A stretch of DNA of 64,000 bases from a virus, in the UHGV virus genome UHGV-0390448, one strand, 5' to 3'. The notes under the pieces were generated by a model. It was given only the letters and a program-made list of their open reading frames with translations. It was not told the DNA's origin and did no database searches. The position numbers were made by a program, and so were the translations under genes. Each line of letters opens with the position of its first letter. The stretch's first letter is position 1. Positions 8,201-27,751 of the stretch are shown here, one piece after another.

Positions 8201-9073
8201 GGGGGCTTTTGCGACCACCGGTGCGCCAGCCGCCTTGTCGTTGCCATTATCTATCCATTCTTTCAATGATTTAGCCTTACCAGTAATCTCGCGGCTGATA
8301 TCAAATACGCCCCGTGCTGCCATCCATAGTGGACCACCAGCCCCTACCCCGGCAGCATCGGTTACAGCTCCATCGTCGGCTTTCCCTGAACCATCAACCC
8401 CCATAATGGAACCGAGTTTTCGCAGGAACCCAACCTGTAGTTTTGCCTGTGCGCGTAGCTCATTCTGGCGTGCGAGATCCTCGTTTTTTTTCTGAGAGGC
8501 AAATCGTCCGTTGCTATCCCGTAACGGTGCACCAGAGGTGCTCTGGCTTTCTCTAACTGGTTGTTCTTGCCTTGCAGGCTGAATGTCAGGAGTGAGCAAC
8601 TGAATGCGCTCTGGCGATGACTTCGTGGCTTTGCCTTCAGCCAGTGGTGCTGTTTTTGATTCCGAATGAGCGGTGCGGTGATCTGCTGCTGCTTTTTGCG
8701 GATTATCTATCTCGCTAGTGTTGTTTATACGTAATCTCTGTTTCCTGGTAGGGAGCCGGTCTTTATACGGCCCCTGTGTGAAACTGTTGCGTTGCGCCCC
8801 TGCTTTTCCTGTTCGGGCCAAGCGACGACTTACGCGTCCTTGTGGTGCGTCGCTGGTATCAGGATTGCGTCCGTAAGACTCAAGTGCTTTTTTTATTTCT
8901 GAAAGCGCAGCTAGCTCTTTCGCGTTTGCCGTTTGTATTGCGTCGATTATCGCTATTCGGTCTTTTTTATCGTTCAAAATAACCTCACTTACATCGGCGG
9001 TGATCACCCTGTTTTTTTGGCGTGGGCTTTGTATTTCTCTTCCAGTGCTTTTTCCATATGGAGTGCCCGCCAC
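5210..9073 (-). CDS. Tail tape measure protein
   Basis: 1287-aa ORF with long low-complexity G/A/K-rich central region and coiled-coil segments, located upstream of baseplate genes. Confidence 0.8.
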   Translation of the reverse strand: MAGTPYGKSTGREIQSPRQKNRVITADVSEVILNDKKDRIAIIDAIQTANAKELAALSEIKKALESYGRNPDTSDAPQGRVSRRLARTGKAGAQRNSFTQGPYKDRLPTRKQRLRINNTSEIDNPQKAAADHRTAHSESKTAPLAEGKATKSSPERIQLLTPDIQPARQEQPVRESQSTSGAPLRDSNGRFASQKKNEDLARQNELRAQAKLQVGFLRKLGSIMGVDGSGKADDGAVTDAAGVGAGGPLWMAARGVFDISREITGKAKSLKEWIDNGNDKAAGAPVVAKAPAITYPAPDNERKTPDNAPGSAKAFTEAVKEKSVRAIEEQTKVLQRNDSQIIDELETVSEEIRKLRKSQESGLKLSDLLGGGRLRSKISPTRGRSSARGGNTGRTGDSKENKGKKGKNTSKPTETGRSQEGKEGKKNQPGKNNSAGEEKNRTKNAGGNEGSTSPKSSGDKSSVKTRAGKVTEESVAKTAAGGAAGKDAGKAATSAGESLTRKEAGKVAVATGENIAKKEAGKVALKAAGGVAARAGFRAIPVIGQVAMVGYDAVDGYSDTEAQRATYNLKEGQDVTTQQKSAYAAANVLDMGGLVTGAANLIGEGMSALGFEGVGQKLQSLDTSNIARGINSSIDASKNAFSSLKESFSSSSEGTAQVKKAVEDGTKQTVAAINDLARQLQGGRRGEDGVGEHGYKSPDEFKAPEKNTITADLNIGGSNAKNRNYRNNNLGNLVFANQEGAVLEAPNAKGEQRFARFNTPEEGIRALANQVSSYYNGTSAAAGYQKLQTVSSIISKWAPPTENNTNQYIENVSKYLGVSPNDKIDVSNPEVMTHLVRAIATKEGGNPAVNNNFIKTALGSFNAKTGRWEGQFNDETLEHINKIQKEKGGPLIARNSQYSVGSKVKYANGSSSAIPASSVAQAVMPTPTDVVQHAQAAKKPKAAQQENAQAISHAKASGKSSAAAELTDRLMSADGVGGVIAGIVGGDPNMGLNLGPVSSPEEMSSLAAKAKQLDKFLVEKISRATGKNFSFQKAEQIADITTAIQQKRNVNRDTETIDLLPESPATISGKRATSTPAGVQIYDNGYKVVEGEDRGFFGSLFDSTVSGLKQVGSAVLPAVGDNLSRLVGGIDSTGMLNDFVLQSSGQNTDVARAISPLTRSVGGWLNGGIQKTADTIRDTTGAINQSLFASGVAAKEPFLAMPPQLPTVTDLARSGIRQMLTTDTANNDPAMLKALENVYSVLKEILGVSKDNRKGDQDKVVNTSQPQPRQRASTTINDPSLDKLLED

Positions 9074-9127
9074 TGCGGTAATTGTTCAACGTCACTAACT
9101 GGCTGGTAGCCGTATAACGTCAGGTTA

Positions 9128-10075
9128 TTAATAATGGTTAGCCATCCATTCAGATCTAATTGATGGGATAAACTCTCTATTGAGAAATGGGGCGTACAGC
9201 GTGGTAGTCACGTCTGCACCCTCCTTAGCGTTTTTGCAGCGTTGTGGCGGTAGGATCAGGCGGCTTGTGCCTCGTTCAATAGCCATTTTTAAGCCGTGGC
9301 GAAGGTCTTTCTGCATGAGCTGAATGCGAGCTACCAGAGGGGTAAACTCGGTTTCCAGTGCCATGTTTTCAATGATATCGAATCGTCTGTTTGCAGCTTG
9401 TGTGAAGTCTTCTGGATCGTCGTTCAGAGATGTACACAAGGCCAACTCAGCTATGCGGAGACGAGCAACCTCAGCACTGTACTCTGGAGTTTTCATATCA
9501 GGCAAAGTGGCGCGCATACGCTCAAGCAATTCAGCGCCTTTCCCTGTTAGTGGTTTAAGCGTCCACTCGGTTGGTACTCCGTTTATAGGGACCATAGTTT
9601 TAATAAACGGCGGGACTGTCAGGATTTCTACCGTTTCGGCAAGGTCTGAAAGGTTAATATCTGCGTGATGAACGTTTCCACAGTGACCACACTCGTATGA
9701 GTAAGTCATTACGGCATCTGGTCTGGAATTGACAAAGATCCACCAAAGCGCGGTTCTGCGATCCTGAACTGTCCAGTTTGAGCTGTCGTTAATTTCGCCA
9801 TCTTGCATGGCGTTGAGGTATTCTGTTGTGGTTGCCTCGTCTTCTGCCGGATTGATGTCTGAATATTTCAGGGCATCTTTCACAGTAGGTGCATGAAACT
9901 GAATTTCTATTTCAGGCTGTGAAGGTAATGGGAATTTGGGAATGTTCAAGGATTCCTCCAGAAAAGTCGGTACTCGTTTGGCTGGAGGATAGGGAGTGTG
10001 TGATTTTGACTTTAACCTATTTATCCACAGGGTAGATCCAATAAATAGATCCCAAAGAGAACCAGTAAGATCCAA
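9128..10075 (-). CDS. Hypothetical protein (possible tail assembly protein by position)
   Basis: 315-aa ORF directly upstream of the tape measure gene; its 5-prime end overlaps the DnaA-box/GATC part of the replication origin. Confidence 0.45.
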   Translation of the reverse strand: MDLTGSLWDLFIGSTLWINRLKSKSHTPYPPAKRVPTFLEESLNIPKFPLPSQPEIEIQFHAPTVKDALKYSDINPAEDEATTTEYLNAMQDGEINDSSNWTVQDRRTALWWIFVNSRPDAVMTYSYECGHCGNVHHADINLSDLAETVEILTVPPFIKTMVPINGVPTEWTLKPLTGKGAELLERMRATLPDMKTPEYSAEVARLRIAELALCTSLNDDPEDFTQAANRRFDIIENMALETEFTPLVARIQLMQKDLRHGLKMAIERGTSRLILPPQRCKNAKEGADVTTTLYAPFLNREFIPSIRSEWMANHY

Positions 10076-10234
10076 AGAAGATCCCGGATCGCTGCGAGCC
10101 GCGCCATCACTGGCCTAAATGGAGATCAACATTGACTATGTGCGATTTAATGTTGACTATGTGCGATTTAATGTTGACTGTACGCGATTTAATGTTGACT
10201 ATATGCGATATAAACATTGACTGTATGCGATAAT
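10022..10234. promoter_or_regulatory. Plasmid replication origin: DnaA box, five GATC sites (four in AGATCC context), five ~21-bp direct iterons
   Basis: Perfect DnaA box TTATCCACA at 10022-10030; GATC at 10036, 10049, 10069, 10081, 10088; five tandem iterons (consensus aatgttgactatgtgcgattt) at 10131-10234, immediately upstream of repA. Confidence 0.8.
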
Positions 10235-10311
10235 TCTCTCAGCCCTCAGACGGCTGTGGATAAGTATCTTTCATTTGGCTATAAAGCCCCGTCAATCAAG
10301 GAAATAACAGG

Positions 10312-11196
10312 ATGGTAGATGACAAAAAAGGCTTTCTGAACGTTGAGGAAATATCAGGGAATACCGGAGAAATCCACAGCTTAAAGCCTAACAATAATAG
10401 CACTATTCAGCCGATAGCTTTGTTGCGGCTTGGGGTGTTTGTTCCCACATTGAAATCTACCAGTGTTGCTTTACGTCGCAAGAACGCCGGTTTAACTAAC
10501 TCCACTGATGCGACAGAAGAACTGTCCAGCCTGAAGATTGTAGAGCAGGAAGGGTATCAGGGTATTGAGATTCATGGGCCACGGCTGGATATGGATACTG
10601 ATTTTAAGGTGTGGATAGGCATTACATCTGCATTGTTTGACTATAAACCAGATAATGATGGTGTGATCACCCTGACATTCTCTGAATTTGTGGATCGTTG
10701 CGGTTATCCAAGGAAGCGGCTGTCCAAGGCTTTTCGCAAGAGCATTGGCGACTCTCTAACGCGTATTCAGCAGACGTTGCTGAAGTTCAACTTGCCCACC
10801 AGCAAAGAACATGTTCGTTATATCCAGATGAATTTATTGGCATTTAGTGAACTTGATACTGAAAATGACATTATAAGAATCCAACCGCAGAAGCAGTTGT
10901 CTGAGTTGTATTACGTTGACTATAAGCGAATATTGAAGCTCAAAATGCTCGATAAACTTGGCAGGAAAGAGACAGCCAAGGTGCTTTATACGTTTTTCGA
11001 AGCGTTACCTTCAAACCCTGCGCCAGTGAGTATTGAGCGCCTTCGCGCCAGATTGAACCTCAAATCATCGGTTAGCGTTCAGAACAGTGTGATTCGTAAA
11101 GCCATGAAAGACTTGGAAGCTGTTGAATATCTTAAATTTTCAGAGATAAAGAATGGTCGGAAAATAGGTTTCCAGATCCATAAACGAAATCCATAA
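10312..11196 (+). CDS. repA: Iteron-binding plasmid replication initiator RepA
   Basis: 294-aa ORF flanked upstream and downstream by iterons; sequence (QPIALLRLGVFVP, MDTDFKVW) resembles the RepA family of P1/RepFIB replicons as I recall it. Confidence 0.8.
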   Translation: MVDDKKGFLNVEEISGNTGEIHSLKPNNNSTIQPIALLRLGVFVPTLKSTSVALRRKNAGLTNSTDATEELSSLKIVEQEGYQGIEIHGPRLDMDTDFKVWIGITSALFDYKPDNDGVITLTFSEFVDRCGYPRKRLSKAFRKSIGDSLTRIQQTLLKFNLPTSKEHVRYIQMNLLAFSELDTENDIIRIQPQKQLSELYYVDYKRILKLKMLDKLGRKETAKVLYTFFEALPSNPAPVSIERLRARLNLKSSVSVQNSVIRKAMKDLEAVEYLKFSEIKNGRKIGFQIHKRNP

Positions 11197-20567: not shown

Positions 20568-21362
20568 TTATGGTTCCTTTTTAGTGTTGCTTTGGAGCGC
20601 ATCGATTACACCTTGTGGCATGATCAAACTGATTGCCGGACTCATTACTTCATCGCCCAGTAGAGAACCGGTTAACGTAATAGCTACAGCATTTTCCAGT
20701 CCCTGTTTGGCTTTTCCGGTAGAGTCCTTAACTTGCTGTGCAAGTGTTGAGAGACTACTGCTCGTGTTGTTTATTGCATTTATTTGTTCTGTTGCTGCTT
20801 CCACAGCGTCTTTTAGTGCTTTGATCTCTTCTTCTGTTAGTGCTGGTTGCTGTGTTGTTCCGGTGGAACTTCCGTTGCCTGAAGCCTCCCCGCTTGACGC
20901 CTGAACTTTTGCATTTATAGCGGTCATAGCTGAAGTGATTGGCACCAGTTCAAATGCTGCCAACGCGTCAATAAGCGATTGCGGATGCAGGGTATCTCCC
21001 ATAACTGTTACGAGAGCAAATTCTGGCGCAGGAGATAACTCATTACCTTTGACGTAACATTCCCAGCCAATTTTCATCTGAAGTAATTCAGTTGGCGAAG
21101 TATACGGAGACAGCGAGTCGGCTAAATTGGTTGCTTCTGCACTGACAGTTTTCAGTTGTTCTGAAAAGACAGAAAGCTGATTGACCCATGAAACCACCGA
21201 CGCCGGGTATGCTTTATCCTTCAGGATAAGAGCCTGGATATTCTCTTCCAGAGAACTGGCATTGGATGACGCTGTTTTACTTAGCGTGATAGATGCAGGC
21301 GTAGTTGTGCCTGATGCATTTAGAATTTTGAATGCGTTAACTTCAGCGATTGAATCAAGCAT
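20568..21362 (-). CDS. Hypothetical protein
   Basis: 264-aa Ser/Thr/Ala-rich ORF between the PAAR-like gene and the spanins. Confidence 0.4.
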   Translation of the reverse strand: MLDSIAEVNAFKILNASGTTTPASITLSKTASSNASSLEENIQALILKDKAYPASVVSWVNQLSVFSEQLKTVSAEATNLADSLSPYTSPTELLQMKIGWECYVKGNELSPAPEFALVTVMGDTLHPQSLIDALAAFELVPITSAMTAINAKVQASSGEASGNGSSTGTTQQPALTEEEIKALKDAVEAATEQINAINNTSSSLSTLAQQVKDSTGKAKQGLENAVAITLTGSLLGDEVMSPAISLIMPQGVIDALQSNTKKEP

Positions 21363-21646
21363 TATGACACCTGAAAAATTGCCTCACCATTAGCGATGAC
21401 TGAGCCACAAGAAAGGGGATCTCCCACACAAACAACTCCTTTCCCGCCTATTGCAAACCATGAGCGCGTCGATACGGCTGATCCGGGGTGCGCGCTATTT
21501 CCGTCTGTATGGCTGGGGAACGCTCCCCCATCTACAACCACTGGCTTTCCATTTACGGTAAACCAGGAAACTGTTTCTGCTACAGGTCGCGGAGGGAATC
21601 CTCCATGACCAGAACAAACTGTGTCACTGGTCGCAATTGCACTCAT
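21362..21646 (-). CDS. PAAR-repeat protein (spike tip)
   Basis: 94 aa with SGHGG...DGNSAHPG...GDPLSCGS, the characteristic PAAR-like Gly/His/Cys pattern. Confidence 0.6.
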   Translation of the reverse strand: MSAIATSDTVCSGHGGFPPRPVAETVSWFTVNGKPVVVDGGAFPSHTDGNSAHPGSAVSTRSWFAIGGKGVVCVGDPLSCGSVIANGEAIFQVS

Positions 21647-21704
21647 CTAACACCTCCTTTTTCTTAAATCTTCTCCACTTTGTGATTTTCACTCTTCAGA
21701 TTTC

Positions 21705-21880
21705 TTACTTCTCATATTTGTCTCTGATTTGTCTCAAAAGGGTATCATTGGTACATCATGTATCATCTAAGTCTCTTTTGTGTCTCTTTTGTGTCTCTAG
21801 TTTGATGCTTTTTACGCTATCTAACTTCTGGTCTTATTTTGTTTTCTCATATAAAATTCAATTCTTTCTCAAATGTGTCT
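21705..21880. promoter_or_regulatory. parC-like centromere/promoter repeats upstream of parM
   Basis: About seven copies of TTTGTCTC / TGTGTCTC within 170 bp in the position that parC occupies in R1-type parMRC loci. Confidence 0.55.
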
Positions 21881-21895
21881 CAGAAGTGGAGCAAT

Positions 21896-22855
21896 ATGAT
21901 GCGCATTTTTATCGACGATGGTTCTACCAATATCAAAATGCTGTGGGAACAAGACGGGGAAACTCGAACCCATATCTGTCCGAACAGTTTTAAACGTGGA
22001 TGGTCCGCCACATTTGGCGCAGGAAAGCCGTTTAACTACATCATTGATGACGAAAAATATTCATATGACTTGATCTCGCCGGATGTGCTGCCGACGAATA
22101 ACGTTGAATGGCAATACAGCCCGCTTAATGTGCTTGCTGTTCATCATGCCCTGCTTACAAGTGGCATTGAGCCTCAAGAAGTGGAAATAGTTGTCACGTT
22201 GCCACTGGCAGAGTTTTATGACGACGACGCACAATACAACATGAAAAATATTGAGCGGAAAAAGGCCAGCCTGATGCGACCAGTCACCCTTAACAAAGGT
22301 CAGGTTTTTACTATCAAAAAAGTGACTGTGCGCCCGGAGTCAATACCCGCAGGGATCGGTCTGTGCGACAGCCTTGTGCCAGCGCATTCTGTGCTTATTG
22401 TTGATCTTGGTGGGACTACTCTGGATGTGTCGATGGTCGCCGGGCAAATGACCGCCGTTTCTCGCGTATTTGGCGATTCTAATCTCGGCGTTTCGCTGGT
22501 AACTAAAGAGGTCAGACAGGCACTTGCAAAAGCGAATACCGAAACCTCTAATTATAATGTCGATCAATTAATCATTAATCGTGATGATGAGGATTATTTG
22601 ACCGACAATATTAACGATCCGTCTGCTATTGATGATGTTAAGAAAGCCATTTCGTCAAGCATAGAACGACTCCGTACACGCGTACTGGATGTGATCAGTG
22701 ATTTCAAAGGATACACGCATGTTATGGTCATTGGTGGCGGCGCGCCGCTTGTTGCTGATGCTATCCGTGAGCAGGTAAACATTCGTGACGATAGGTTTTT
22801 CGTTGCTGATGATCCACAACTTGCTCTTGTCTATGGTCTAAAATCTATCGGTTGA
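21896..22855 (+). CDS. parM: Actin-like plasmid segregation ATPase ParM/StbA
   Basis: N-terminus MMRIFIDDGSTNIKMLWEQ...NSFKRGW...VHHALLTSG closely parallels R1 ParM (MLVFIDDGSTNIKLQW...); start chosen at the ATGATG after RBS GTGGAG. Confidence 0.85.
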   Translation: MMRIFIDDGSTNIKMLWEQDGETRTHICPNSFKRGWSATFGAGKPFNYIIDDEKYSYDLISPDVLPTNNVEWQYSPLNVLAVHHALLTSGIEPQEVEIVVTLPLAEFYDDDAQYNMKNIERKKASLMRPVTLNKGQVFTIKKVTVRPESIPAGIGLCDSLVPAHSVLIVDLGGTTLDVSMVAGQMTAVSRVFGDSNLGVSLVTKEVRQALAKANTETSNYNVDQLIINRDDEDYLTDNINDPSAIDDVKKAISSSIERLRTRVLDVISDFKGYTHVMVIGGGAPLVADAIREQVNIRDDRFFVADDPQLALVYGLKSIG

Positions 22856-22865
22856 TGAGGTTGCC

Positions 22866-23231
22866 ATGTCTCAGGAACGTCGAAAAGTATTGTTTTATCT
22901 TCGTCCTGGTCTTAACGCCAGTGAGCAATATGCTGATGCAAAACTTGAGGGCCATCCATTAAGAGATCGCAATGATATGGCGCGCACAGCGATGCTTGCA
23001 GGTATCGCTCTTGGCGAGGTTGATAGCAGATTACCTCCCATGTTGGCATCGCTTTTATCCGGTGATAATAGCCCTGAAGTGATCAGAAAAATGCTGGTTT
23101 CATTTCTTGAAATTTCGCCTGAAGTTCGGGAAGCCTCTGAAGGAAACACCTCTGTCTCAGAGGATGTAAAAAAACCAGGCGTTCCGAAAAGCCGCTCTGC
23201 ACAGAATTTGGCAAACTCACTCCCTGATTAA
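22866..23231 (+). CDS. parR: ParR/StbB-like centromere-binding adaptor
   Basis: 121-aa ORF immediately downstream of parM, the invariant position of parR. Confidence 0.6.
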   Translation: MSQERRKVLFYLRPGLNASEQYADAKLEGHPLRDRNDMARTAMLAGIALGEVDSRLPPMLASLLSGDNSPEVIRKMLVSFLEISPEVREASEGNTSVSEDVKKPGVPKSRSAQNLANSLPD

Positions 23232-23248
23232 CCAATCTACATCTTCAA

Positions 23249-23273
23249 AGGCTGCAATTTGCAGCCTTTTTTA
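23249..23273 (+). terminator. Rho-independent terminator after parR
   Basis: ggctgca-att-tgcagcc stem-loop followed by tttttt. Confidence 0.7.
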
Positions 23274-23274
23274 T

Positions 23275-23515
23275 ACCGTTATGGTTCTGGTTTGGTGCTC
23301 TTTTAGTACCAAAACGGTGTTGTTATGGTGCTGCTTTGTATCTGGTTCCACTTTGGGGCTGATTTCGTGTTAAACAGGATGCAACAGAGGGCAAATTTAG
23401 AGTGTTTAGTGTTATACTTTTGCAAAGCATAGTGACTCCACTATAGAGCCAAAACCGCATCAATAAGGCTTCTGTTTGGAACCAGTTTGATACCAAAATA
23501 ACACCGAGGAACGGA
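23275..23515. repeat. Centromere-like repeats upstream of the ParA/ParG-type operon
   Basis: Repeated GTACCAAAACGGTGTT-like and TTATGGTKCTG-like elements (ggtaccaaaacggtgtt, gataccaaaataacaccg, ggaaccagtttg). Confidence 0.5.
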
Positions 23516-23516
23516 T

Positions 23517-24158
23517 ATGATTATATTGGTAGTCAGCCAAAAAGGTGGCTGTGGAAAATCAACCACAAGCGTAAACATCTGTGCGGAGCTTGCCCGCGAA
23601 AATAAGGATGTAGTGTTACTAGATGCAGACAAGCAAGGAACAGCTGCCCGCTGGGCAGCTGACCGTAACACGGCAGAGGTTTCTCCTGTAATTCATTGTG
23701 TCCAGAAGTTTGGTAATATTCGAGAAACACTTCTCGATCTGGATAAGCGTTATGAATTTGTAGTTGTTGATACAGCCGGGCGCGATAGCAAAGAGATGCG
23801 TACAGGCATAACCGCTGCAGATATTGTGTTGGTCCCATTCAGACCATCTCAACCAGATTTAGACACGCTGGCACACTTTGTTGAAGTGTTTGAAGAGGCT
23901 TTGGACCTGATGCCTAATCCTAGCATTAAGGCGTTCGCAGTCTTAACAATGGCCCCATCCAATCCGGTTGTGAATGAAACCAATGAGGCCAAAGAGTACC
24001 TAGCTGAATATCCGCAACTGAAGTTGCTGAAAACCATCATTCGTGATCGTAAGGTTTACCGCGATTGCATGGCTGAAGGGAAGGGCGTTGTTGAGATGGA
24101 CAACGGGAAAGCTAAAGGTGAAATCCAGATGTTGGTTAAGGAGTTATTAAGTGATTAA
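23517..24158 (+). CDS. Small ParA-family partition ATPase (ParF-like)
   Basis: 213 aa with deviant Walker A KGGCGKST near the N-terminus. Confidence 0.8.
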   Translation: MIILVVSQKGGCGKSTTSVNICAELARENKDVVLLDADKQGTAARWAADRNTAEVSPVIHCVQKFGNIRETLLDLDKRYEFVVVDTAGRDSKEMRTGITAADIVLVPFRPSQPDLDTLAHFVEVFEEALDLMPNPSIKAFAVLTMAPSNPVVNETNEAKEYLAEYPQLKLLKTIIRDRKVYRDCMAEGKGVVEMDNGKAKGEIQMLVKELLSD

Positions 24159-24438
24159 GCCTCGTAAATCGGTAAAAGCCCCCGAAGTAAAAGACCCCGA
24201 TCTTGAACGCCGAATTGAGGATTTTGCCAGTAAGGCTGATTTGGTGCCGGGTGAGCAACCAGAAGACAACAAAGTGCTCGATAAGGACGCCCCACGTGAT
24301 TTTAAATCCATTCGTGTTGGCTTCAATGAATACGAGTACCAGGTACTTGATGCGTTAAGCAAAAAGCATAATCGCAGCAAATTGAATATGATCCGCCATG
24401 CTATTCTCATGCTTGCAGAGTCTGAGGATACAAAATGA
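24151..24438 (+). CDS. ParG-like ribbon-helix-helix partition protein
   Basis: 95-aa ORF overlapping the ParA stop; disordered N-terminus and C-terminal RHH-like segment (NMIRHAILMLAE). Confidence 0.55.
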   Translation: MIKPRKSVKAPEVKDPDLERRIEDFASKADLVPGEQPEDNKVLDKDAPRDFKSIRVGFNEYEYQVLDALSKKHNRSKLNMIRHAILMLAESEDTK

Positions 24439-24444
24439 CGCCGG

Positions 24445-24550
24445 AATAACACCGTTTTGGTTCCATGTGTTATTTTGAAGCTATTTTGATGCCTTTTTAG
24501 TACCAGAATGGTGTTATTAGTGTACCGTAACGGTGCTTGTTTGATGTTAT
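24445..24550. repeat. Second copy cluster of the GTACCAAAACGGTGTT-family repeats downstream of the ParA/ParG-type operon
   Basis: aacaccgttttggttcc (inverted), agtaccagaatggtgtt and gtaccgtaacggtgctt. Confidence 0.5.
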
Positions 24551-24551
24551 A

Positions 24552-24575
24552 AAAGCCCCATATGGGGCTTTTCTT
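24552..24575. terminator. Bidirectional terminator between the ParG-like gene and dmt
   Basis: aaaagcccca-ta-tggggctttt: stem flanked by A-tract on one side and T-tract on the other. Confidence 0.7.
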
Positions 24576-26988
24576 AATTAAGCGTGGCTATAATGTCGTT
24601 AGCTATCATTCGCGTTGATGCTTTACAGGATACAGAGCGACGGGATGGCATAGGATACACCTTGAAGCCATTGCCAACGTAAAGTTCGCGAATGTTAGGC
24701 GCTCCACTGTTTGTTATCACAATTTTCGCCCCGCGTCTGTGAGCATCTACCAGCAGCGACACCAGCCGTTGTTGATCTTCAAACCTAAAGCTATGCCCTG
24801 AGTAATTTGTAAATCCGGTAGTGTCGGGCAATGGTTCATAGGGGGGATCGCAGAAAATCACATCATCATTCCCGGCAGCCTCAATTACACCAGCAAAATC
24901 GCCGGACACAAATTCCGAATACTTTGAAATATCGTCAGCCAGGAACGCCTCCATTTCCGCGAGAGGGAAGTAGGGAGATTTCTGCTTTCCATATCCGACG
25001 TTGAACTCTCCTTTACGGTTATAGCGAGTGACGCCATTAAAACAATGACGATTGAGATACAGGAACGCCGCTGCATGGTGAAGAGAATCATAAGCACCAT
25101 TGTTGAATGCATTGCGAACATTCAAAAATGCATCAGCAGAGTTGTAATCCTGAAAATAACGATATGCCAGTGTGATAAGAGAATACCCTTCACGCTGCAA
25201 TGTCTGATAGAAGTTAATCAGGTCACCGTTAATATCATTAAGCAGGTTGTGGCGAAAACCTGCATTCGTAAATACGGAACCGCCACCAACGAATGGTTCT
25301 ATTAACCGCTTGCCGTGTGGCAGATGCTCAAGCACTGTAGGCAACCCTGAGAATTTACCGCCTACCCATTTGAATATTGGGCGCTCATATTCATCCGGAG
25401 TCCGGAGTTTTCTAGTGTAGGTAATGGTATTTATTGTTTTTTGCTGTTTATCCGCCACGGTCGCAAGAATGCGACACCCAATCCATTGCATAACAGGAAC
25501 TGCCATGCTGTTGCCGATCGCTTTGTAACGCGGTCCGTCAGCTGCAAGCATCGCGGCCTCTTCTTCGCTTAAATCTGGATAGTGATTGCGCAGATATGCC
25601 AGTTCATCTGAATTAACTTTTTTACGCTTTTCCGTAGGGATCAACGTATGCCCATCAGGAAAACCTTGAAGTCTCTCACATTCGACAGGGGTAAGACGGC
25701 GGACAGCTACTTCTTCGTTTCTTACTTCATAGCAAACAGCAGTTGGATTTTGAGCCATTAGAGATGGTGAAGTATTCTTAGTTGCTGCATGTTGTGTACC
25801 ACTCATACGCTCAGGAAAAGCCAATGTAACAAGATGCCCATGGCTTTCTTGCTCACGCGCCCGCAATGTACCATGCCCTTCTGACCAAAAACCTGCTCCA
25901 GTGCTGCTAAAAACGGCAAGGTCAGTGGCATCTTTAAAGTCTCTTGCCTTTACTGTCGATGCGGTTTCATCGTCAATATATTCCCCAAATGCCGCCATCC
26001 TGAAACCGTTTACGGCTTTCGTCGATTTCATATCGGGGGACATGCCAGCGTGTAGGCATGGATTTAGGCTTTCGCCACTGATTGCAGCGCCATTTGCAGT
26101 AATGGCGGAAGCGATTTCCTTCTTTTTTCGGCTCGGCGCAATATTCCGGCGCACGCCTTCGAACTCAAAAAGTACCGTTGCGGGATCGAGGTCTGTTCGA
26201 GCACTTGCGACAACAAACACGCGTCGGCGTCGTTGTGCCACTCCGAAGTATTGGGCATCAAGGATTCTCCAGGCCACTTTTCGCTGCGGTCCATAAATAC
26301 AACCACACTGCGGCCACTTTGGAGCATGGCTACCGGTTTTGGCATCCCACCGCCAGAACGCGTTACTTTTTCGTGATTCAGGTCGATCACCAGGTTCGAA
26401 TGGCGCATTTTCTCCAGCCAATCCGGCAAGGAAACATCCGAATGCGTTATCTGCTGATGACAGGACTCCTGGGACATTTTCCCATACGATGACGGCTGGT
26501 TTGAGAAAGGACTCGGCCCGTTTGTCGTCAATTGCATTTGCAAGCTCCACATATTTTAAAGTTAGCGCGCCGCGCTCATCATCAAGCCCACCACGCAAGC
26601 CCGCGATACTGAATGCCTGACAAGGGGTTCCTCCGACGAGAACATCCGGGGCTTCAATTTTTCCAGCCCGGATCTTCTTAGCAAGTTTTGTCATGTCGCC
26701 AAGGTTGGTGACATGAGGCCAGTGGTGCGCAAGAACGGCAGACGGAAAAGGCTCGATTTCAGCAAACCAAGCCGGACGCATACCCAACGGTTCCCAGGCA
26801 ATGCTTGCGGCTTCAATTCCACTGCAAACCGAACCATATCGAAGATTAATGCTCTGCTTCACCGCCAATGGCCTCCACCAGCGAGCTAAACATCGCGGAT
26901 AATTCGCTTGTGAACAGAATGAAGTCAGCATCAAACCGCTGGGCAACATCTTCACGGTCGATGTCATCGTTCTGGTCATAGAGATCAT
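24574..26988 (-). CDS. dmt: Bifunctional DNA methyltransferase, N-terminal C5-cytosine (Dcm-like) fused to C-terminal N6-adenine (Dam-like) domain
   Basis: N-terminal part has CSGIEAASIAW (motif I-like) and GGTPCQAFSIAG (PCQ motif IV); C-terminal part has FVGGGSVF and DPPY. The true start is probably internal, since the ORF as drawn overlaps the upstream gene by about 140 nt. Confidence 0.8.
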   Translation of the reverse strand: MISMTRTMTSTVKMLPSGLMLTSFCSQANYPRCLARWWRPLAVKQSINLRYGSVCSGIEAASIAWEPLGMRPAWFAEIEPFPSAVLAHHWPHVTNLGDMTKLAKKIRAGKIEAPDVLVGGTPCQAFSIAGLRGGLDDERGALTLKYVELANAIDDKRAESFLKPAVIVWENVPGVLSSADNAFGCFLAGLAGENAPFEPGDRPESRKSNAFWRWDAKTGSHAPKWPQCGCIYGPQRKVAWRILDAQYFGVAQRRRRVFVVASARTDLDPATVLFEFEGVRRNIAPSRKKKEIASAITANGAAISGESLNPCLHAGMSPDMKSTKAVNGFRMAAFGEYIDDETASTVKARDFKDATDLAVFSSTGAGFWSEGHGTLRAREQESHGHLVTLAFPERMSGTQHAATKNTSPSLMAQNPTAVCYEVRNEEVAVRRLTPVECERLQGFPDGHTLIPTEKRKKVNSDELAYLRNHYPDLSEEEAAMLAADGPRYKAIGNSMAVPVMQWIGCRILATVADKQQKTINTITYTRKLRTPDEYERPIFKWVGGKFSGLPTVLEHLPHGKRLIEPFVGGGSVFTNAGFRHNLLNDINGDLINFYQTLQREGYSLITLAYRYFQDYNSADAFLNVRNAFNNGAYDSLHHAAAFLYLNRHCFNGVTRYNRKGEFNVGYGKQKSPYFPLAEMEAFLADDISKYSEFVSGDFAGVIEAAGNDDVIFCDPPYEPLPDTTGFTNYSGHSFRFEDQQRLVSLLVDAHRRGAKIVITNSGAPNIRELYVGNGFKVYPMPSRRSVSCKASTRMIANDIIATLN

Positions 26989-27751
26989 CGCAAAACGTCA
27001 GTGCTTTGATGCTCATGTCATCGTTTAACCTGAAGGTCGCGCGGTCCTGCCAGTTGATTGCAACTGTTGTTGCAACTTTTCCGGCTTCAATATGAGTCAT
27101 TATTTCCTCTGACTGTAGGTCTACTTTCTTGCAACGAACTGCGCCGCCGTCATCGAACAGAGATTTCAATATGGCTTCTTCGCCTGCTTTAAAGCCTTGA
27201 GGAAATGTTGACTTGAACCATTCGGTCATAGTCATTTCGAGCGGTTCTATCGGCGTGAATGGAATCACCGGAAGGCTGCCAAGTGATTTACGTAAGAGCG
27301 CCAGCATTTCTTCTGCTTTTCTGGCGCTGGAAGCTTCTACGAAGACCAGATAGTTGTCGCGATCAATAAGGATTCGCGACAATGATTTGCGAGTGAATGC
27401 GCGAGGCAACAAAGAGTGGAGAACTTCATCCTTCAGGGTGTTTTTTTCCGACTTCTTCAGCTTACGGGATTGCTCATTTTCGAGCTTTTCCACTTTTTTC
27501 TGCACTTCCTCCTTAATGACATGAGAGGGCAGGAGCTTAATTTCTCGCTGTTGCTGGAGAAGTAGAAAACCGTGGTATTCATGGATCAGGTTGTCAGCCA
27601 GAACCGGCACCCATCCGACTTTTGCCATTTCTTGTGATGCGCATGGAGTGAATGTGAATTGGCTTAAGGCATCACTAACGGTGGTTGAGTCCAGTTTAAT
27701 TTCGCGGGCAAGGCGATAGACGTATATGTTTTTAAATGCGACCAATCTCAT
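26846..27751 (-). CDS. RdgC-like recombination-associated protein
   Basis: 301 aa; extensive collinear similarity to E. coli RdgC as recalled (FKN..VYRL, FTPC.SQ.MAK.GWVP, LKDEVLHSLLPRAF, LRKSLGSLPV, DREDVAQRFDADFIL). Confidence 0.75.
   Translation of the reverse strand: MRLVAFKNIYVYRLAREIKLDSTTVSDALSQFTFTPCASQEMAKVGWVPVLADNLIHEYHGFLLLQQQREIKLLPSHVIKEEVQKKVEKLENEQSRKLKKSEKNTLKDEVLHSLLPRAFTRKSLSRILIDRDNYLVFVEASSARKAEEMLALLRKSLGSLPVIPFTPIEPLEMTMTEWFKSTFPQGFKAGEEAILKSLFDDGGAVRCKKVDLQSEEIMTHIEAGKVATTVAINWQDRATFRLNDDMSIKALTFCDDLYDQNDDIDREDVAQRFDADFILFTSELSAMFSSLVEAIGGEAEH

Follow-up and report, generated by a model that had tools for sequence, protein, structure and literature searches.

Anatomy and conservation of a tandem locus with two probably functional partition cassettes, type II and type Ib, in a D6-like phage-plasmid

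INTRODUCTION

The phage-plasmid P1 has a single type Ia partition locus, parAB-parS, next to repA, consisting of a large ParA with a helix-turn-helix (HTH) domain, an HTH ParB, and parS (PMC10999674). Plasmid pB171 carries two adjacent systems on one replicon, the type II system par1 (parMRC) and the type Ib system par2 (parABC, with parC1 and parC2). In type Ib systems such as TP228 ParF/ParG, IncI pESBL ParA/ParB, and pSM19035 delta/omega, a small HTH-less ParA is paired with a partner that has a flexible N-terminus and a C-terminal ribbon-helix-helix (RHH) domain, and repeat arrays flank the operon and overlap its promoter; arrays on both sides of the operon are known for pB171, pSM19035, and pESBL (PMC7602700). 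Here, we examined the virus genome UHGV-0390448 (64,000 nucleotides; this whole stretch is called the window below), in which the region at 21.7–24.57 kb holds relatives of both the type II and the type Ib systems side by side.

Combinations of this kind have been described before. A 2026 survey counted type I-RHH plus type II systems on 971 PLSDB plasmids and found that ~19% of the plasmids with recognizable par systems carry more than one (PMC13245405). Both systems contribute to stability in pB171, and the same holds for the Shigella virulence plasmid (references in PMC13245405). For phage D6, the pair of a type Ib ParA and an RHH protein has been tabulated (PMC8026635), and parA, stbB, and parM have been mentioned for the D6-like plasmid pYU39_89 (PMC6799933).

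RESULTS AND DISCUSSION

Two complete cassettes in tandem

The DNA of the window belongs to a D6-like (P1-related) phage-plasmid, and the region is very probably a double partition locus in tandem, with two independent, complete, and probably functional segregation cassettes. It contains four plus-strand genes in two intact operons, each with its own terminator (Table 1). An initial annotation of the window had proposed that two partition systems of different kinds adjoin here, both with repeat arrays of their own, in a layout unlike that of P1. Family and structure matches bore out the first part, and the layout does differ: the locus lies ~10.5 kb from repA (Rep3 family, 10312–11196), no par gene adjoins repA, and the P1-type large HTH-ParA, HTH/CTPase ParB, and parS were found neither beside repA nor in the first 50 kb of pEC361_3, a 99.5% identical relative in which no further partition gene is listed over that length. 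What the locus shares with the type Ia system is its role in a related myovirus phage-plasmid and the Walker ATPase core of ParA. The replication initiator itself is of the Rep3/RepB type and is not P1 RepA-like in Pfam terms.

Table 1. Features of the par locus and its immediate neighbors (window coordinates; a dot marks features listed without a strand)
Feature	Position	Strand	Evidence or remark
PAAR-motif gene, P1 upfC-like	21362-21646	-	Left neighbor of the par locus
parC-like centromere and putative promoter region, type II system	21703-21895	+	Repeat search, in-register listing, lag-11 identity
parM (stbA), actin-like segregation ATPase, 318 aa	21899-22855	+	Pfam, R1 ParM structures
parR (stbB), predicted centromere-binding adaptor, 121 aa	22866-23231	+	PF10784, 2jd3
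Intrinsic terminator of parMR, AAAGGCTGCA-ATT-TGCAGCCTTT followed by a T run	23247-23276	+	RNA fold
Upstream iteron array, type Ib	23268-23355	.	Repeat search, lag-11 z = 4.2, 16-mer search
Candidate extended -10 element of parA-parB, TGTTATACT	23410-23418	+	Read from the sequence, within the quasi-periodic array
Operator-proximal iterons, inverted, GTTTGGAACCAGTTTGATACCAAAATAACACCG	23474-23506	.	Repeat search; kept in relatives
parA, type Ib Walker-type partition ATPase without N-terminal HTH domain, 213 aa	23517-24158	+	NCBIfam, ParF, par2 ParA
parB-like gene, putative centromere-binding protein, 95 aa	24151-24438	+	Homologues, predicted model, gene context
Downstream iteron array, type Ib	24445-24548	.	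Repeat search, lag-11 periodicity, 16-mer search
Bidirectional terminator hairpin, AAAAGCCCC-ATAT-GGGGCTTTT	24551-24572	.	RNA folds; between parB and the methyltransferase gene
Fused C5/N6 DNA methyltransferase gene	24574-26988	-	Right neighbor, convergent to parB

The first cassette has the parts of a type II ParMRC system, namely a two-domain actin-fold ATPase, ParR encoded directly downstream, and an array of ~11-bp iterons upstream of parM. ParM matched the Pfam StbA_N domain (2e-69) and the ParM C-terminal domain (9e-56), and aligned over its full length (residues 1–318) with the R1 ParM structures 4a62 and 1mwk at an E-value of 1e-110. In this alignment, the phosphate-binding and adenosine motifs of the nucleotide-binding site (FIDDGSTNIK, DLGGTTLD, and VIGGGA) are kept. 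The TTG at 21839, where the mechanically called open reading frame (ORF) begins, is probably not the real start of parM; a second in-frame ATG is present at 21896. The parR gene starts 10 nt past the parM stop codon, and ParR matched PF10784 (Plasmid_stab_B; 3e-14, with 53 bits exceeding the cutoff of 25) as well as 2jd3, the structure of pB171 ParR (3e-7). The cassette thus resembles R1 ParMRC in the full-length ParM match, the conserved motifs, and the position of parR, whereas ParR is only distantly related to that of R1 and the sequence and number of the iterons differ.

The second cassette has the anatomy of a type Ib system: a small HTH-less ParA with a deviant Walker A motif, a gene for an RHH-fold protein directly after parA, and repeat arrays flanking the operon. 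ParA carries the deviant Walker A sequence SQKGGCGKST (KGGCGKS at residues 9–15), the A' motif LLDADKQG, and the Walker B motif FVVVDTAG. Its best solved relative was TP228 ParF (4dzz; 1.5e-18, full length), and it shared 43% identity with a pB171-type par2 ParA and 44.5% with an IncI-type ParA. The match to P1 ParA (3ez9) was weak (E-value of 1e-3) and confined to a 66-residue stretch (residues 68–133). The parB-like gene begins at a GTG codon behind AAGGAG, with an overlap of 8 nt with the parA stop.

The two systems are separate operons, since a terminator follows parR and a bidirectional hairpin follows parB. The parMR terminator folded at -14.5 kcal/mol (z = -5.8; 0 of 200 shuffles were as stable), and the bidirectional hairpin at -14.6 to -15.5 kcal/mol on the two strands (z = -3.4 and -4.3). 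When six diverged relatives were aligned, the terminator stem, the TG-preceded TATACT at 23410–23418, and the parA ribosome-binding site were invariant, while the surrounding DNA varied. We propose TGTTATACT as the extended -10 element of parA-parB, a call kept at the level of a candidate because a consensus scan did not list it. That scan also missed both obvious terminators, which were confirmed by folding.

The classic example of this combination is the pB171 double locus. In both elements, a type II and a type Ib system are adjacent on one replicon, with repeat arrays upstream as well as downstream of the type Ib operon (PMC7602700). A pB171-type locus (CP091396.1), located by means of the 2jd3 ParR sequence, encodes a ParA 43% and a ParM 42% identical to those of the window. 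However, the pB171 operons are divergent and parC1 is shared by both promoters, whereas the operons of the window are in tandem with a terminator between them and no shared control region is evident.

Several points weigh against the reading of two functional cassettes. A search of the accessible literature found no experiment on binding, ATPase stimulation, or stabilization for the present element or for D6. The score of ParA against the NCBIfam model ParA_partition (NF041546) was 162.8 bits, below the cutoff of 180, at an E-value of 7e-48 and with all 203 profile positions covered; ParA is a relative of this family and not a curated ParA_partition equivalog. No Pfam family matched the 95-aa protein at E-values up to 0.1, and its assignment to the RHH proteins draws on homologous proteins, on a predicted model of the monomer, and on Foldseek matches over ~42 residues, with E-values of 0.1–1 that owe their weakness to the shortness of the domain. 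With a degenerate iteron core, attempts with a position weight matrix (PWM) and with expectation maximization (EM) gave no specific matrix. The promoters are candidates, as the consensus two-hexamer scan gave fewer promoter-like sites than shuffled sequences. Finally, in pMUB-MIN14-1 (NZ_CP069647.1, 97% identical), only parR is listed, and tblastn found parM, parA, and parB in pieces and in different frames; either both motors have truly decayed there, or the assembly contains indel errors.

Conservation, selection, and exchange of the cassettes

The closest phage relative is D6 (NC_050154 / MF356679), whose par locus is 87.5% identical to that of the window over 74% of the length. D6 and the D6-like pYU39_89 have the same four genes in the same order and the same place, between the PAAR gene and the dmt/rdgC genes; in D6 these are orf58–61, of which the first two are annotated as partition proteins of the StbA and StbB types, the third as a "ParA-like partition protein", and the last as hypothetical. 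The D6 record does not annotate the centromere arrays as features. The four-gene module also matched 122 PLSDB plasmids of Escherichia coli, Salmonella, and Shigella, seven of them over the full length at ≥95% identity; the matching plasmids are ~90 kb in size, non-mobilizable, and carry P1/D6-like virion genes. The D6 lineage has this double par locus as its standard partition module, and double loci of this kind are known. Dual systems in one phage-plasmid had been called unusual at the outset. This is overstated, given D6 orf58–61, the 122 matching plasmids, and the type II plus type Ib pairs on 971 plasmids; among deposited phage records it has more substance, as D6 was the only accession in both homologue searches (all 16 matches for ParM and the best 40 of 146 for ParA).

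None of the four ORFs is disrupted in the window or in five diverged relatives. Where the synonymous rate (dS) was measurable, the ratio of nonsynonymous to synonymous rates (dN/dS) was 0.013–0.023 for parM (against D6-type copies), 0.025–0.056 for parA, and 0.08–0.17 for parB. The intact ORFs and low dN/dS values indicate that neither system is pseudogenized; the initial annotation had named pseudogenization of one system as an outcome that would undo its proposal. The locus of pSa1423-90k, which appears ridden with frameshifts, was left out of these comparisons.

The two cassettes have separate recombination histories, as judged from their sequence identities. Between the window and D6, parA is 99.7% identical at the nucleotide level and 100% at the amino acid level (orf60), whereas parM is only 80% identical at the nucleotide level with saturated dS; in pRHBSTW-00605_3, conversely, parM is 99.6% and parA 92% identical to the window. 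These opposite identities indicate that at least one cassette has been exchanged recently. Exchange or divergence extends to the adaptor and its centromere. ParM is 94% identical between the window and D6, whereas ParR is 58–62% identical (121 versus 112 aa), with the differences mainly in residues 8–35, to which the RHH of pB171 ParR maps, and in the linker, while the C-terminal tail is conserved. At the same place, the parC iterons are of the GTCTC type in the window and form a CTCA-type 11-bp array in D6-type relatives. Such co-variation of ParR and parC is what one would expect of a diversifying centromere specificity combined with a preserved motor contact. Among variants of the type Ib cassette, the RHH strand hardly changes, and the arrays vary in detail and keep GGTGY/GTAC cores and the 11/22-bp phasing in every lineage.

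Separate histories also fit the view that only one cassette works and that the other is a redundant or decaying passenger gained by recombination, comparable to parABS2 of SCP1 in laboratory conditions; in SCP1, one of the two systems matters for stability (PMC13245405), and the fragmented parM, parA, and parB of pMUB-MIN14-1 would be in line with such decay. We consider this view unlikely. The four genes are intact in six lineages at saturated or high dS with low dN/dS, the arrays of both cassettes persist from lineage to lineage, as do the terminator and the -10 element, and both cassettes are present in essentially all of the ~120 enterobacterial D6-like plasmids. The double loci of pB171 and the Shigella virulence plasmid, in which both systems contribute, argue in the same direction.

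Iteron arrays of the two cassettes

Periodicity was measured as self-identity at a lag of 11 nt, with z-scores against dinucleotide shuffles. The array upstream of parM was the top-ranked periodic region of the entire window: over 21703–21812, the lag-11 self-identity was 0.58 versus 0.32 in shuffled sequences (z = 5.9), and 0 of 2,000 shuffles reached as high a value. Its units recur at an 11-bp phase and end in a (T)GTCTC/ATC core, for example ATATTTGTCTC, TGATTTGTCTC, and two copies of TTTTGTGTCTC, and a proximal copy, AAATGTGTCTC, stands at 21871–21881, directly 5' of the parM ribosome-binding site. The parC of R1 is built of 11-bp iterons, and the iterons upstream of parM match that design. 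The word TTTGTGTCTC with one mismatch was not enriched across the window (8 matches versus 4.6 expected; 12 of 100 shuffles equaled it), so the assignment of a parC rests on the phasing instead. Three central units at 21736–21768, AAAAGGGTATC, ATTGGTACATC, and ATGTATCATC, are nearer to the iteron cores on the parA side (GGTGC, GTAC, GTATC) than to the flanking GTCTC units, and the motif is degenerate there. They hint that the RHH protein might cross-regulate parMR, in the manner of pB171.

The array upstream of parA consists of seven to eight units at an 11-bp phase with a T-rich spacer and an RGTRY core (TGGTTTGGTGC, TCTTTTAGTAC, CAAAACGGTGT, TGTTATGGTGC, and TGCTTTGTATC). Its lag-11 self-identity was 0.51, and the periodicity runs on to the ribosome-binding site (23268–23516, z = 6.2). 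The candidate promoter is separated from the parA ribosome-binding site (GAGG, 23506–23509) by the inverted iterons of this region. The downstream array contains one inverted 16-mer at 24448–24463, which is followed by about seven direct 11-bp units (TATTTTGAAGC, TATTTTGATGC, CTTTTTAGTAC, CAGAATGGTGT, TATTAGTGTAC, CGTAACGGTGC, and TTGTTTGATGT); here, the lag-11 self-identity was 0.44 (24461–24550; z = 3.1–3.7 across calculations). A 35-nt stretch is 83% identical between the two arrays. As had been proposed from the sequence, both flanks carry one repeat family: the 16-mer GTACCAAAACGGTGTT, which is made of neighboring units at 23306–23321, occurred four times in the window with up to three mismatches (0.59 expected), once upstream of parA, three times downstream (one inverted), and nowhere else.

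Two attempts at a motif model were dropped. The first PWM was built from 11-mers in which the upstream and downstream arrays were out of register, and it had low information and no specificity; a home-made EM motif finder converged on A/T-rich low-complexity patterns. Therefore, the argument is carried by the periodicity statistics and by the 16-mer mismatch search. As controls, the autocorrelation was applied to known loci. It gave a 7-bp period on both flanks of the pB171-type par2 operon (CP091396.1, 1234–2512). A length of 6 bp had been expected for the pB171 repeats; this expectation may be wrong, or the 7-bp spacing may include a spacer base. At the IncI/pESBL-type locus (NZ_CP009107.1, 2700–4314), the period was 8 (8/16 bp), in agreement with the published octamer repeats (PMC7602700). 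The repeat periods of ~7 bp in the pB171 type and 8 bp in pESBL thus differ from the 11/22 bp of the window.

The same analysis gave 11 or 22 bp on both flanks in all D6-type variants and in a Serratia homologue, and upstream only in an Aeromonas homologue. The upstream region of the latter contains GGTACCAAAAAGGTTCC and AGTACCGGATCGGTGT, which belong to the motif family of the window. In both genera, the RHH homologue (47% identity in Serratia, 52% in Aeromonas) is encoded after a small ParA together with 11/22-bp-phased GGTACC/GGTGY-type repeats. That protein and motif travel together is the best indirect support for the idea that this RHH family recognizes the 11/22-bp iterons.

The arrays might instead be only autoregulatory operators, or chance periodicity in AT-rich DNA, with the true centromere elsewhere. 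Besides the degenerate core and the unspecific PWMs, this idea could draw on D6, which departs from the window over the first 55 nt of the upstream array and, strongly, over the entire downstream array, despite a 98% identical ParB. We judge it very unlikely, because the z-scores of 3–6 are accompanied by a clear ranking, with 39 of the 40 most lag-11-periodic positions, in sliding 90-nt windows over the 64 kb, falling within the three par arrays. Moreover, the 11/22-bp phasing is present on both flanks in every lineage examined, including the downstream array, which has no promoter to regulate, and the 16-mer family is confined to the two flanks of the parA operon.

The 95-aa partner of ParA

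The 95-aa protein consists of an N-terminal tail (MIKPRK), a helix at residues 16–29 (IEDFAxxAD), a linker, and a C-terminal RHH segment, SIRVGFNEYEYQVLDALSKKHNRSKLNMIRHAILML. In an exhaustive HMMER search, similar small proteins were recovered in 101 representative clusters. In an alignment of 61 members, the basic N-terminal tail (MVKxR) with a nearly invariant R5 is followed by the short helix IExFAxxAD, a variable linker, and a conserved C-terminal block, KxIxVPFNEYEYxxLE...GRSKLNxIRxAI, in which N59 is invariant. Among these 61 homologues, 19 matched the Pfam family NikA-like, 16 RHH_1/CopG, 13 DUF6290, and five TraY. A profile search of the PDB with the homologue family gave weak CopG matches (E-values of 0.2–0.6); phmmer with the single protein gave no significant match to PDB sequences, the sole listing being an L13 ribosomal protein (E-value of 3.7).

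AlphaFold2 with the alignment predicted helices at residues 16–29, 60–73, and 77–91 (pLDDT of 88.5), superseding a single-sequence model with a pLDDT of 55. In a Foldseek search of the PDB with the predicted model, the leading ranks were all RHH proteins (CopA-SO, CopG, Arc, ORF56, NikA, CdbA, ParG, and TacA), with target TM scores of 0.7–0.83 and root mean square deviations of 1.2–1.6 Å over 40–42 residues. The protein is therefore called here, on the strength of this model and of its homologues, an RHH centromere-binding protein of the type Ib kind. The earlier description of the partner as ParG-type stands for the architecture, a predicted RHH fold in 95 aa, and fails for sequence family: Pfam ParG was matched neither by the protein nor among the 20 families matched by its homologues, no PDB sequence match to ParG (1p94) was found, and ParG ranked 11 in Foldseek with a probability of 0.57. 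Thus, the partner lies outside the ParG family of TP228, and it has no similarity to IncI/pESBL ParB and no detectable sequence similarity to the CopG-type ParB of the pB171 type (BLASTP E-value of 0.13; hhalign probability of 0.8%). It represents an uncharacterized family of ~100 clusters at 50% identity, likely one associated with 11/22-bp iterons. Its homologues directly follow a small ParA gene in plasmids of Serratia, Acinetobacter, Moraxella, and Aeromonas.

Readings other than partition were considered for the pair. A toxin-antitoxin function was rejected, as the only RelB-like match (E-value of 0.049) was far below the cutoff and the neighboring gene encodes ParA and no toxin. The idea that ParA and the RHH protein process DNA as a VirC1/VirC2-like or relaxosome-accessory (NikA/TraY-like) pair, or that a transcriptional regulator is teamed here with an ATPase, is the least probable of all, and its VirC1/VirC2 form was likewise rejected, since the matches that suggest it, of ParA to VirC1 (Pfam, 1.9e-12; NCBIfam, 3.5e-14) and of the homologues to NikA-like most often and to TraY, are set against a VirC1 score of 52.7 bits (far under its cutoff of 313 and under the ParA_partition score), the partition ATPase ParF as the best solved relative, the identity with a functionally studied pB171-type par2 ParA, host elements typed as non-mobilizable and without a relaxase, and iteron arrays flanking the operon, a hallmark of type Ib centromeres (PMC7602700).

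Proposed mechanism and significance

From the established behavior of R1 ParMRC and of the type Ib systems of TP228 and pB171, we infer how two functional cassettes would work. In the type II cassette, ParR dimers would coat the 11-bp parC iterons, both repressing parMR and forming the partition complex, and ParM-ATP filaments, captured or capped via the conserved C-terminal tails of ParR, would push sister prophage plasmids apart. In the type Ib cassette, dimers of the RHH protein would bind the 11/22-bp-phased GTACC-N5-GGTGY iterons, upstream of parA through the promoter and the 5' untranslated region as well as downstream of parB. This binding would autoregulate parAB, the upstream set overlapping the promoter and 5' untranslated region, and would build a two-sided partition complex. 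The basic N-terminal tail may then stimulate nucleoid-bound ParA-ATP, so that plasmids would be positioned along a ParA gradient; the near-invariance of R5 in the 61 homologues is indirect support for this step. Both cassettes would thereby stabilize the prophage plasmid.

Two systems may have been kept for additive stability, by analogy with pB171 and the Shigella virulence plasmid. Another possibility is that they buffer partition incompatibility with co-resident IncF or IncI plasmids, with which modular exchange would fit. A bolder version, which we hold to be rather doubtful, sees the cassettes as independently shuffled specificity modules (ParR with parC, and the iteron flanks of the RHH system), swapped by recombination around conserved motors; the RHH ParB might build a ParR-like helical complex on 11-bp iterons, one helical turn each, within a ParA-driven system, and might cross-regulate the parMR promoter via the GGTATC/GGTAC units at 21736–21768. 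If modules were shuffled in this way, their combinations would let such elements evade partition incompatibility with the plasmids that share their host.

How stably phage-plasmids are inherited, and how they behave in incompatibility, is set by their partition loci; clinical and animal E. coli, Salmonella, and Shigella commonly carry such elements. The D6 lineage has a type II and type Ib pair in place of the single type Ia system of P1, with centromere and adaptor parts exchanged independently of the motors, which offers a testable picture of how D6-like prophages might coexist with IncF and IncI plasmids bearing related par systems. Since textbooks already cover both double par loci and two-sided centromeres of type Ib, little is gained conceptually. 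What is new is modest: the tandem layout with separate terminators, an uncharacterized RHH ParB family with 11/22-bp iterons, and the independent recombination of the cassettes and of the ParR/parC part.

Neighboring genes and related phages

Homology of the window to D6 ends precisely where parB stops. D6 (8843–10504 in its coordinates) and some relatives (locus L006) have glnS, encoding glutaminyl-tRNA synthetase, between the par locus and dmt; in the window, 24439–24573 contains no glnS, and the bidirectional terminator abuts the dmt stop codon. The parB-dmt junction appears to be a point of insertion or exchange.

The 804-aa ORF on the right has an N-terminal C5 domain (PF00145, 7e-37) and a C-terminal D12-class N6-adenine domain (PF02086, 2.5e-50), resembling dmt of P1. 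D6 has two separate genes, orf63 and orf64, and pEC361_3 annotates only a 918-nt Dam gene. As mechanically called, the fused ORF overlaps the rdgC ORF (26846–27751) by 143 nt, so the real methyltransferase start is probably internal. Further downstream, ~9 kb from the par locus (~33–34 kb in the window), a HigB/HigA toxin-antitoxin pair is annotated in the near-identical relative and would be an additional maintenance function.

A ParM 47% identical to that of the window is encoded in a set of 33–40-kb phage genomes that resemble P88 or bear its name (P88, 520873, Chuche, PhiR44_2, and Xuanwuvirus P884B11), where it is annotated variously as a recombinase or as ParM, suggesting that actin-type partition genes occur in phages not usually seen as plasmid prophages.

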